A DNA stretch of 64,000 bases from a virus: positions 1-64,000 of IMG/VR virus record IMGVR_UViG_3300033066_000693, one strand, 5' to 3'. Positions 47,905 to 49,356 of the stretch are shown here, in pieces. A program made the position numbers and the translations under genes. The notes under the pieces are model-generated. The model had not been told where the DNA came from. It did no database searches and was given only the letters and a program-made list of their open reading frames with translations. Position 1 is the stretch's first letter, and the number at the start of each line of letters is the position of its first letter.

Positions 47905-47976
47905 GGGCTTGTCGTCTAGAGGCTAGGACGGAAGACTTTCAATCTTCTAACCGGAGTTCGATTCTCCGCAGGCTCA
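47905..47976 (+). tRNA. tRNA-Glu-like (anticodon UUC)
   Basis: acceptor GGGCTTG/CAGGCTC, D-arm GTCTAGAGGCTAGGAC, anticodon loop C-T-TTC-A-A, T-arm CGGAG-TTCGATT-CTCCG. Confidence 0.6.
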
Positions 47977-48007
47977 CTTACAATCAGGTTCTTTTGGCAG
48001 GTATTTC

Positions 48008-48082
48008 GGCCCTATCGTCTAGTCTGGTTTAGGACTTCTGATTCTCAGTCAGAAAACCTCGGTTCAAATCCGGGTAGGGTCA
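48008..48082 (+). tRNA. tRNA-Glu-like (anticodon CUC)
   Basis: acceptor GGCCCTA/TAGGGTC, anticodon stem TCTGA/TCAGA, loop T-T-CTC-A-G, T-arm CTCGG-TTCAAAT-CCGGG. Confidence 0.6.
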
Positions 48083-48095
48083 TTTGAATAGTTTA

Positions 48096-48167
48096 GGCCC
48101 TGTCGTATAGCGGCAAGTACGTTGCCCTCTCAAGGCAGTAACACGGGTTCGAATCCCGTCAGGGTCA
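48096..48167 (+). tRNA. tRNA (anticodon CUC as read; isotype uncertain)
   Basis: acceptor GGCCCTG/CAGGGTC, D-arm GTATAGCGGCAAGTAC, loop C-T-CTC-A-A, T-arm ACGGG-TTCGAAT-CCCGT. Confidence 0.55.
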
Positions 48168-48172
48168 TTTTC

Positions 48173-48244
48173 GGCCTCGTAGTATTATGGGTAGATCGCA
48201 ACTCTTTCAAGGTTGAGGACCGGGTTCAAGCCCCGGCGAGGTCA
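48173..48244 (+). tRNA. tRNA-like (anticodon UUC as read; weak D-stem)
   Basis: acceptor GGCCTCG/CGAGGTC, loop C-T-TTC-A-A, T-arm CCGGG-TTCAAGC-CCCGG; D-stem largely mismatched. Confidence 0.45.
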
Positions 48245-48247
48245 TTA

Positions 48248-48496
48248 ATGAAGCTTCCTGTCGAACAACTTATTCTCATCAAGTATTCGATCAATGAGAG
48301 CATTGAAAAGCTTCAATCAAGCATCAACTACAACAGGAGTCTTCTTAGAACAGTAGATAGGCTAGATTACAACACTTCAGATATTCTTCTAAACAAGATT
48401 CTCCGTCTCGAACTAGACCTTAAAGAGACAAAAGAACTACAAGATCTTCTGGAAAAAGTCGCTTCGATTACAGTAAAGATGAAAGACGGCAAATGA
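48248..48496 (+). CDS. hypothetical coiled-coil small protein
   Basis: start moved to the ATG just after the last tRNA. Confidence 0.35.
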   Translation: MKLPVEQLILIKYSINESIEKLQSSINYNRSLLRTVDRLDYNTSDILLNKILRLELDLKETKELQDLLEKVASITVKMKDGK

Positions 48497-49356
48497 AACT
48501 TAACACTAGAATAGCCCCGTCCCCAACAGGAGATATGCATATTGGTACCGCCCGTACTGCATACTTCAATTGGCTAGCCGCCCGCTCGACCGGCGGCATC
48601 TTCACTCTCCGTATTGACGACACGGACCTAGCTCGCTCCGACTCTAAGTTCTCTCAGGTCATTCTTGATACAATGGCTTGGCTTGGACTTACATACGATA
48701 ACCTCTTCTATCAGAGCCAGAGGTTCACTTCTTATAGGATCGTTGCTGACGACCTACTTTCAAGCGGAATGGCTGTAAAAGATGGGGATGCAATCATCCT
48801 TATGCCCAAATCCTTGCCCGATAGCTGGAACGACGATTTGGCAGGGAAAGTCGTCATTTCAGGGGACGACAAGAGCGGCATGACTAAGGGTATCGTGCTT
48901 ATCAAGAGCGACGGAAGCCCAACCTACCATTTCGCTTCGGTGGTTGACGACATTGACATGGACATCAACTTTGTCATTCGAGGCGCTGACCATATTACCA
49001 ATACGTCTCGTCAGGTCGCTATTTATCATGCGCTTGGCAAACCTCTTCCTCGCTATGCGCATGTTGGTTTGATTCATAAGGACGGGAAGAAGCTTTCTAA
49101 GAGGGACGGCGCTGCGAGCATGCTTGCTTATAGGGATCAGGGAATCGATCCAGACGCAATGCTTAACTTCATGGCACGTTTGGGTTGGGGTCCGACCGTT
49201 GACGACAAAACGACTGCAATCCTGCCAAGAGAGAGGATGCTTGACCTGTTCCTTTCTGGCGGAAAAATGAAAGGCTCGTCTGCGAACATGGATCTGGTCA
49301 AGTTGGCTTCGTTTGACAGGAAATACAAAGGCAGAAAAGAACAGGCAAAAACGTAA
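48493..49356 (+). CDS. truncated glutamyl-tRNA synthetase catalytic domain (glutamyl-Q tRNA(Asp) synthetase / GluQRS-like)
   Basis: class I HIGH motif PSPTGDMHIGTARTA, RIDDTD, KMSKS-like KLSKR; 287 aa, no anticodon-binding domain. Confidence 0.7.
   Translation: MKLNTRIAPSPTGDMHIGTARTAYFNWLAARSTGGIFTLRIDDTDLARSDSKFSQVILDTMAWLGLTYDNLFYQSQRFTSYRIVADDLLSSGMAVKDGDAIILMPKSLPDSWNDDLAGKVVISGDDKSGMTKGIVLIKSDGSPTYHFASVVDDIDMDINFVIRGADHITNTSRQVAIYHALGKPLPRYAHVGLIHKDGKKLSKRDGAASMLAYRDQGIDPDAMLNFMARLGWGPTVDDKTTAILPRERMLDLFLSGGKMKGSSANMDLVKLASFDRKYKGRKEQAKT

Follow-up and report, generated by a model that had tools for sequence, protein, structure and literature searches.

Why would a virus keep a run of glutamate tRNA genes directly in front of a glutamyl-tRNA synthetase (GluRS) that has no anticodon-binding domain? 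The question is raised by the IMG/VR virus record IMGVR_UViG_3300033066_000693, of which positions 1 to 64,000 were analysed as one stretch of DNA, hereafter called the window. In this window, four tRNA-Glu genes (E1-E4) precede, on the same strand, the gene for a 287-residue protein that we call mini-GluRS. An earlier note, made from the letters of the DNA alone, had described the locus as a dedicated charging or modification unit, or a set of decoys, built around a protein like glutamyl-queuosine tRNA(Asp) synthetase (GluQRS). The identity of the tRNAs, the domain content and lineage of mini-GluRS, the distribution of its family, and the synteny of the locus are established directly by the analyses described below, and they offer a basis for weighing what the module may do.

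A GluRS-lineage catalytic core without an anticodon-binding domain

The sole Pfam match of mini-GluRS is the class I Glu/Gln synthetase catalytic domain (PF00749, 3e-63), and the class I motifs are present, HIGH as MHIGTARTA and KMSKS as KKLSKRDG. The anticodon-binding domain (Pfam PF19269) is absent, as is the putative zinc-binding subdomain, a Cys-motif insertion present in both GltX and GluQ of E. coli; in alignment, the phage protein stops at about residue 320 of E. coli GltX. The earlier description of a class I catalytic core with HIGT and KLSKR and without the anticodon-binding domain is thus borne out. Its likening to GluQRS holds for the architecture of about 290 residues and fails for the lineage, on which profile scores, sequence identity, database searches, and structural comparison agree. 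Mini-GluRS shares 44% identity with E. coli GltX, compared with 27% for E. coli GluQ. Against the NCBIfam model of bacterial GluRS (TIGR00464, gltX_bact; profile positions 1-318 of 470 matched), it scores 282.3 bits and does not reach the cut-off of 289.95, because the C-terminal third is missing. None of the five GluQRS models (TIGR03838 and NF004312-NF004315) reaches its cut-off either, the best score being 168.4 bits against 250 and that of TIGR03838 being 163.6 against 276.7. A phmmer search of the Protein Data Bank (PDB) ranks the GluRS of E. coli, Xanthomonas, Stenotrophomonas, and Burkholderia best (188-211 bits, with 8i9i at 211), whereas the GluQRS entry 1nzj scores 78. An AlphaFold2 model (pLDDT 92.3, pTM 0.91) likewise retrieves bacterial GluRS first in Foldseek, at TM scores of 0.83-0.88, with GluQRS at ranks 43-44 and TM scores of 0.67-0.74. 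Mini-GluRS therefore belongs to the GluRS lineage, not to that of GluQRS.

Among 15 diverse family members, Y145 and R163 are invariant, and R6 and S10 are nearly so; we take these four residues to align with the Glu-binding residues of the Thermus and E. coli GluRS structures. By its motifs, these pocket residues, the confident model, and the fold, mini-GluRS looks like an intact enzyme, as far as prediction goes. The family also carries a basic C-terminal tail of its own (KYKxRK). A split enzyme with a free anticodon-binding domain was considered and rejected: no separate open reading frame (ORF) for such a domain was found in the window by tblastn or by a profile of C-terminal regions, with 79 full-length homologues and E. 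coli GltX as the source.

Distribution and origin of the family

Homologues of mini-GluRS form more than 120 clusters at 90% identity, are 269-322 residues long, and are 56-98% identical to the query, some of them lying on contigs of 100-405 kb. A scan of viral contigs yielded 69 loci, the contig being 100-608 kb long in many cases, and in a library of 50%-identity representatives the approximately 35 best clusters are almost all 277-320 residues long. The genes are accompanied by those for elongation factor Ts (EF-Ts), lysyl-tRNA synthetase (LysRS), a release factor, a sigma factor, and many tRNAs; LysRS is a neighbour of mini-GluRS in relatives (L007 and L010). The size of the family and its place beside translation genes, on viral contigs as long as 608 kb, indicate that the truncation is selected for and is no artefact. 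The family was found only on phage contigs. A search of cellular genomes, with one genome per prokaryotic species, gave only full-length GluRS at 37-41% identity among the matches listed, which does not prove that the family is absent there.

The nearest canonical enzymes are two full-length GluRS proteins (P0161 and P0164) of 444-447 residues, which are 46-47% identical to mini-GluRS and likewise lack the zinc-binding subdomain. The alignment of P0161 with the phage protein is colinear through residues 2-280, and residue 287, the first of the anticodon-binding domain of P0161, is precisely where mini-GluRS stops. P0164 has a cellular context, adjoining genes for GlnRS, PolA, and L31. GluRS without the zinc-binding subdomain has been described from bacteria that possess GlnRS, in 7 of 212 bacteria (PMC4381286), and the position of P0164 beside GlnRS matches this published co-occurrence. 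On sequence grounds, the best account of the phage protein is a loss in two steps: the zinc-binding subdomain was already gone from the GluRS it derives from, and the anticodon-binding domain was then removed cleanly at its boundary. Several longer members, namely P0135 (488 residues, in a phage-like context), P0152, P0133, P0125, and P0155 (locus L211), bear extensions of 70-200 residues without an anticodon-binding Pfam match, which may be alternative tRNA-binding modules. A second and shorter GluRS-like family of about 250 residues, 31-38% identical to the query, occurs at loci L044-L082, on viral contigs as long as 572 kb. These are other huge-phage contigs, and the loci are mostly without tRNAs nearby.

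Four conserved tRNA-Glu genes

The earlier reading of the array as four Glu isoacceptors with anticodons UUC, CUC, CUC, and UUC agrees with ARAGORN, which assigns all four genes to the single isotype Glu rather than to four different ones, and with the Rfam tRNA model RF00005 (47.8-61.2 bits against a cut-off of 29; E-values 4e-10 to 4e-7). The genes are separated by spacers of 30, 13, and 5 nt. As had been read from the sequence, every acceptor stem has 7 bp with a G2.U71 wobble, alongside G1-C72 and A73. Furthermore, all four tRNAs have a 4-nt variable loop in which nucleotide 47 is missing, together with U13.G22; E1-E3 have U11-A24, A37 is among the Glu-type features of the array, and the anticodon loops look ordinary. 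In E. coli tRNA-Glu, U13.G22, the missing nucleotide 47, U11-A24, and A37 are identity elements, and the acceptor stem begins with G1-C72 and U2-A71. The latter pair is not found here, since pair 2-71 is G.U throughout the array. The earlier note had singled out G2.U71 as a mark shared by the four genes, and it proves not to be special to them: G2.U71 and A73 also occur in the tRNA-Glu of a Listeria-associated contig (GGCCCGU...ACGGGUCA), and a related wobble, G1.U72, is seen in one tRNA-Glu from Coriobacteriia. The occurrence in the Listeria-associated tRNA points to a lineage difference, not to a loss of identity.

Pairwise identity among E1-E4 is only 59-69%, and the genes are therefore no recent duplicates. 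When they were aligned with ten tRNA-Glu genes of related phage loci, 98% of the pair cells of the cloverleaf formed standard pairs across the 14 sequences, and 17 of the 21 pairs showed compensatory changes. This level of pairing was reached by none of 500 shuffles, and no slid register came close. U13.G22 is present in all 14 sequences and G2.U71 in 12. Because their stems are kept by compensatory changes, the tRNAs are under selection and are not decaying decoys, and nothing was found in support of the decoy idea. Individual genes have recognizable counterparts elsewhere: E1 is 89% identical to the first tRNA-Glu of locus L166 and E2 is 74% identical to the second, while E3 has its counterpart in the annotated tRNA-Glu(CTC) of Sinorhizobium phage Phosso (84.6% identity over 65 nt). 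The gene order UUC, CUC, CUC, UUC also occurs on contigs of 370-506 kb (L165, L166, and L205).

The D-stem of E4, which had been called poor, does contain two mismatches in the canonical register. Decay is not the explanation, as the same arm is conserved in the orthologues at L007 and L166, where the D-arm GTAG(T/C)ATTATGGGTAGATCG is identical but for one nucleotide. The E4-type D-arm GTAGTATTATGGGTAGATCG is common to the fourth tRNA of L166 (85% overall identity) and to tRNA b of L007, whose anticodon is CUC. The anticodon stems of these orthologues have been wholly replaced with their pairing still kept. Retention of the D-arm while the anticodon stem was replaced argues for a maintained variant, and the arm appears compatible with G10-C25, one bulged nucleotide, and then A-U, U-A, and U.G.

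Promoter-like site, leader, and small ORFs

Upstream of the array lies a sigma-70-type promoter-like site, which we infer to function as a promoter. Its extended motif, TTGACAAGAAGGA.TTGGCCGATA, occurs a single time in the window, and the site is kept in L001 and L007, where it precedes the tRNA-Glu array by the same distance (-154 to -163); it is also visible in the L166 and L172 sequences, and a diverged version is present in L002. The site and the leader that follows it are conserved together in seven loci, among them L001, L002, L007, L166, L172, and L196. The leader has a minimum free energy of -37.6 kcal/mol (z = -3.6 against shuffles), and in a consensus of four sequences its hairpins show five pairs with compensatory changes. 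Its micro-ORF keeps its frame through indels of 3 or 6 nt and encodes the motif E-Q-R/S-N-F/V-x-E-R in seven loci. A role as a T-box or Glu-sensing attenuator was considered and rejected. The leader has no T-box match at E <= 1 and no other Rfam match; no U-tract terminator is present in it, as hairpin 2 has no U-run after it, and just 2-3 of the 17-19 codons of the micro-ORF are Glu codons. The leader is not called an attenuator because of this missing terminator and the few Glu codons. In a metagenome scan with the leader motif, 2 of 38 stretches were true leader-tRNA-Glu loci (L196 and L205).

The small ORF that had been noticed just after the last tRNA is indeed there, its ATG lying 3 nt downstream of E4. 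This 82-residue ORF has no Pfam or PHROG match, and tblastn detected no homologues of it in related loci; other, unrelated small ORFs sit at the same position in L001 and L166. The 67-residue ORF on the other side of mini-GluRS matches no family in Pfam or PHROG, shows no conservation by tblastn, and is not an anticodon-binding domain. The two flanking ORFs were accordingly dismissed as conserved partner proteins. Both overlap mini-GluRS by start and stop codons (ATGA and TAATG), which suggests joint expression of the ORFs. The only plus-strand terminator-like match between the array and the end of the gene is weak and lies inside the mini-GluRS ORF (48714-48726), and the tRNA array and mini-GluRS may be co-transcribed.

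Linkage of the array to the enzyme and role of the module

An array of tRNA-Glu genes upstream of the synthetase gene recurs in four related loci: L001 has three such genes 232 nt away, L002 has three at 6 nt, L007 has two at 2 kb with EF-Ts in between, and the more distant L021 (57% identity) has three at 516 nt. This recurrence makes a functional link plausible. The explanation towards which we lean, with slightly better than even confidence, is that the module is a translation-support operon of a huge phage that keeps glutamate decoding going. In such an operon, one sigma-70-type promoter and the structured leader would drive four functional tRNA-Glu genes, with E1 and E4 (UUC) reading GAA and GAG, and E2 and E3 (CUC) reading GAG. 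Mini-GluRS would activate glutamate and transfer it onto the 3' end of tRNA-Glu, recognizing the acceptor stem and the augmented D helix (U13.G22 and the missing nucleotide 47) rather than the anticodon. One small enzyme could thereby charge both UUC and CUC isoacceptors, of phage or host, whatever the modification of the wobble base. The result would be a high supply of Glu-tRNA for a genome rich in Glu codons. In the window, GAA is the second most used codon (39.7 per 1000) and GAG the seventh (26.9 per 1000), counts that speak against setting codon-usage compensation aside, as the earlier note had done.

We infer the glutamylation of tRNA-Glu by mini-GluRS, its mode of tRNA recognition, and the benefit to the phage from sequence comparison. 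Charging by such a protein is plausible because C-terminally truncated E. coli GluRS is reported to remain specific for tRNA-Glu and to be stimulated by its distal domain in free form (Dubois et al. 2009, Biochemistry 48:6012, cited in PMC4393105 and PMC3927822), and because cellular GluRS enzymes with the zinc-binding subdomain deleted exist (PMC4381286).

Several observations weigh against this explanation. On the side of the enzyme, mini-GluRS has lost two tRNA-contacting modules at once, the conserved Glu of the RIEDTD motif (E41) is Asp (RIDDTD) in every family member, and C-terminally truncated E. coli GluRS is said to be much less efficient. On the side of the array, E4 departs from the U11-A24 identity pair, and the promoter scan returned six sites in all against 4.5 expected from shuffles, which is not above expectation. 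The codon counts are those of the phage window alone. The linkage itself is partial. Of the 28 distinct loci of the family, seven have tRNA-Glu and ten have tRNA-Arg within 5 kb of the gene, and nine have no tRNA at all. Conversely, L166 and L205 (contigs of 494-506 kb) have the leader and the same array with no mini-GluRS within 5 kb; in these contigs, which are not among the family-motif matches, an HNH gene is inserted after the first tRNA. Since only 7 of 28 loci show the pairing and the array occurs elsewhere without the enzyme nearby, the pairing is, on present sequences, a clade-specific synteny in a tRNA-rich translation region, not an obligate two-part system. The proposal of a dedicated unit is thereby upheld for the recurrence of the array in the four related loci and weakened as a general rule.

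Four other explanations, taken here in descending order of likelihood, would account for some of the same features. Mini-GluRS and the phage tRNA-Glu set could be a defence-evasion pair, that is, a back-up charging system immune to HipA-type kinases acting on GluRS or to anticodon nucleases that need a modified wobble base, in which an anticodon-blind enzyme would go on charging unmodified or variant tRNAs. The conservation of the domain loss over a large family found only on phage contigs would fit this idea, as would the conserved array of U34 and C34 isoacceptors with its variant-D-arm tRNA. Additionally, the tRNAs in the vicinity of the family are for the most part those for Glu, Arg, Gln, and Lys, whose U34 forms carry xm5(s2)U34 and are classical nuclease targets. 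The window also contains NAD-salvage genes of a counter-defence-linked kind, and HipA is described as phosphorylating GluRS (PMC10627512). However, the module has no defence or anti-defence gene linked to it, its anticodon loops look ordinary, and the array exists without the enzyme nearby. Mini-GluRS even keeps the KLSKR serine, which we take to be the HipA target Ser239 of E. coli GltX. We consider it improbable that the pair serves evasion, and hold the same doubt about the broader version, in which it would provide defence-proof, anticodon-independent charging where the host has inactivated GltX, or has cleaved or under-modified tRNA-Glu, and would be a living analogue of the proposed catalytic-domain-only ancestral GluRS. 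A GluQRS-like modification, which would place glutamate on queuosine-34 of tRNA-Asp or on another hypermodified nucleoside instead of a 3' end, seems to us unlikely. The shared architecture of about 290 residues without the two domains, a GluQRS model score well above noise (E = 2e-49), and the fact that, among natural GluRS paralogues that have been characterised, GluQRS alone lacks an anticodon-binding domain (PMC9437257) all lend it some appeal. This is outweighed by the five unreached equivalog cut-offs (best 168 against 250) and by the lower identity and TM scores to GluQRS than to GluRS. The CxC...Y...C region of most GluQRS (PMC4381286) is also absent, ARAGORN finds no tRNA-Asp gene in the window, no queuosine gene is present among the approximately 35 window ORFs scanned, and the neighbours are tRNA-Glu and tRNA-Arg.

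The array and the enzyme might also have no functional link, the former merely compensating codon usage and the latter being a decaying or regulatory remnant that binds tRNA or ATP without productive charging. Such independence would agree with tRNA-Arg being a commoner neighbour than tRNA-Glu, with the occurrence of the array without the enzyme nearby, with another truncated synthetase-like gene in the window (the HisRS-like ORF of 250 residues), and with the HNH endonucleases and tRNA fragments that show frequent rearrangement of the region. A remnant would hardly keep its catalytic motifs and aligned Glu-pocket residues over more than 120 clusters with identities as low as 56%, nor end in a clean truncation at a domain boundary, and the overlapping start and stop codons suggest joint expression; we rate this explanation, too, as having little chance of being right. 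Less credible still is a supply of Glu-tRNA-Glu as glutamyl donor for a phage transferase that would modify DNA, protein, or peptide non-ribosomally. The conserved unusual D-arm and T-loop of E4 might be read this way, as non-translational tRNAs, for example the Staphylococcus tRNA-Gly of cell-wall synthesis, also have variant arms. A phage precedent exists in Mom, for which Gly-tRNA-Gly is used to hypermodify DNA (PMC13219725). Pfam and PHROG searches nonetheless place no candidate transferase (GNAT/Fem, LanB-like, or PEARL-like) beside the module, E1-E3 have fully canonical elongator features, and the neighbours are translation factors and other aminoacyl-tRNA synthetases.

Genomic setting

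The window has the look of part of a huge (jumbo) phage genome, with 87% coding density and one dominant strand. ARAGORN finds six tRNA genes in it, four of them tRNA-Glu. No close relative was found among cultured phages: blastn matches are short tRNA segments only, and tblastn matches reach at most 40% identity and fall in records without annotation. The coordinates of the module and of the other features are given in Table 1.

Around the tRNA-Arg(UCU) gene downstream of mini-GluRS, HNH endonuclease genes stand amid pieces of the same tRNA. One of these, an aberrant element, retains the Arg acceptor and the UCU anticodon arm and lacks a normal D-arm. Together with an HNH ORF between the first and second tRNA-Glu of L166, this arrangement suggests that homing endonucleases remodel the tRNA clusters. 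An amber-suppressor tRNA is also present, and a suppressor with the anticodon UUA occurs in a relative (L019/L020). TAG is the stop codon of 23 of 86 crude ORFs in the window, and with the coding density already reached under the standard code there is no obvious recoding of TAG. Charging of the amber suppressor by mini-GluRS is unsupported: the acceptor stem (GCUCUCG) and the 5-nt variable loop of that tRNA are not Glu-like, and TAG ends the ORFs just mentioned.

Other synthetase-related genes include a full-length LysRS; no codon is used more often in the window than AAG (Lys). The HisRS-like ORF is a second truncated synthetase-like gene of the same genome and is possibly HisZ-like. It adjoins genes for two proteins with a Clp_N domain, of which one also has an HD domain, as well as the phosphoribosyl pyrophosphate (PRPP) synthetase gene. 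The latter belongs to an NAD-related gene set that resembles the NAD+ salvage and counter-defence sets of phages. The vault-type and Ro60/TROVE proteins are components of eukaryote-type RNA-protein particles, and neither a Y RNA nor any other Rfam family was found near their genes at the thresholds used.

Table 1. Positions of the module and of other features in the 64,000-nt window
Feature	Position	Strand	Remarks
Sigma-70-type promoter-like site TTGACA-17-TAGAGT	47751-47779	+	10/12 match in promoter scan
Structured leader, about 125 nt	47780-47904	+	Contains micro-ORF and two hairpins
Leader micro-ORF, 17-19 codons	47798-47854	+	MNIFAEHEQSNFRERQRR
Leader hairpins	about 47826-47863 and 47866-47890	+	
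E1 tRNA-Glu(UUC)	47905-47977	+	ARAGORN; Rfam 58.6 bits
E2 tRNA-Glu(CUC)	48008-48082	+	ARAGORN; Rfam 54.6 bits; larger D-loop
E3 tRNA-Glu(CUC)	48096-48167	+	ARAGORN; Rfam 61.2 bits
E4 tRNA-Glu(UUC), conserved non-canonical D-arm	48173-48244	+	ARAGORN; Rfam 47.8 bits
82-aa ORF	48248-48496	+	ATG 3 nt after E4; stop overlaps mini-GluRS start (ATGA)
mini-GluRS, 287 aa	48493-49356	+	Rossmann catalytic core and stem-contact region
67-aa ORF	49356-49559	+	Start overlaps mini-GluRS stop (TAATG)
tRNA-Arg(UCU)-related 5'-half-like fragment	about 49567-49600		
HNH endonuclease gene	49596-50108	-	
Aberrant tRNA-like element	50175-50250		Rfam 35 bits; missed by ARAGORN
tRNA-Arg(UCU), intact	51054-51127		
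HNH endonuclease gene	51190-51543	+	
tRNA-Arg 3' half, second copy	about 51545-51580		
LysRS, class II, full-length	54645-56102	+	NCBIfam lysS_bact 451 bits, over its cut-off
NAMPT	56138-57712		
Ro60/TROVE protein with vWA domain	60219-61913		
NAD-dependent DNA ligase	3071-4987		
IS605-type TnpB (OrfB with Cas12f-like TNB domain)	11144-12322		
Short glutamine-synthetase-like ORF	18283-19329		
899-aa protein with major-vault-protein shoulder and repeat domains	20626-23325		
Amber-suppressor tRNA, anticodon CUA	24364-24438	+	ARAGORN label 'Pyl'; Rfam 55 bits
WGR-PARP-like protein	30147-31733		
HisRS-like ORF, truncated, 250 aa	42043-42795	+	Matches only positions 11-140 of HisRS core model
PRPP synthetase	43829-44815		

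Comparison with known systems

Mixed operons of tRNA and protein genes are known from cells, as in thrU-tyrU-glyT-thrT-tufB of E. coli. The phage module resembles this operon in that four tRNA genes immediately precede a translation-protein gene on the same strand, apparently under one promoter. It differs in that its tRNAs are all of one isotype, which matches the downstream synthetase, and in that the next ORF begins 3 nt after the last tRNA; co-transcription here is putative. Among phages, the closest setting is that of huge-phage genomes, for which tRNA arrays, aminoacyl-tRNA synthetases including GluRS (in an example tree), translation factors, and an amber-suppressor tRNA are described (Al-Shayeb et al. 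2020, PMC7162821). The same source already proposes that phage synthetases charge phage tRNA variants. As tRNAs and synthetases are known in huge phages, the module itself is no surprise. A GluRS without the anticodon-binding domain and the arrangement of promoter, leader, tRNA-Glu, and GluRS are not mentioned in the passages of that paper on aminoacyl-tRNA synthetases (PMC7162821), and literature searches found no description of either the phage enzyme or its tRNA-Glu arrangement. What is less expected is a large, conserved phage-contig family of GluRS-lineage proteins that lack the whole anticodon-binding domain as well as the zinc-binding subdomain.

Three kinds of enzyme come close to this family. 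With bacterial GltX, in its variants without the zinc-binding subdomain, it shares the catalytic fold, the HIGH and KLSKR motifs, and the Glu pocket of E. coli GluRS; it differs in lacking the whole PF19269 domain, in the replacement of E41 by Asp, and in its KYKxRK tail. The engineered C-terminally truncated E. coli GluRS, as described from Dubois et al. 2009, has essentially the same domain content. In contrast to that construct, the phage family is natural and also lacks the zinc-binding subdomain, and no free distal domain accompanies it in the window. If mini-GluRS does aminoacylate, it would offer a natural test of whether the catalytic core alone can carry specificity for tRNA-Glu, a model for an ancestral single-domain synthetase, and possibly a compact, anticodon-blind part for genetic-code engineering, and it would show phages shrinking translation components while keeping their function. 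GluQRS/YadB is likewise a natural GluRS catalytic-core protein of about 290 residues without an anticodon-binding domain, and it was previously the only characterised one, acting as an RNA modifier and not as a charging enzyme. The phage protein stands apart from it as a separate lineage, with the Cys-motif region missing and with no genomic link to tRNA-Asp or queuosine genes, its companions in this window being four genes for tRNA-Glu.

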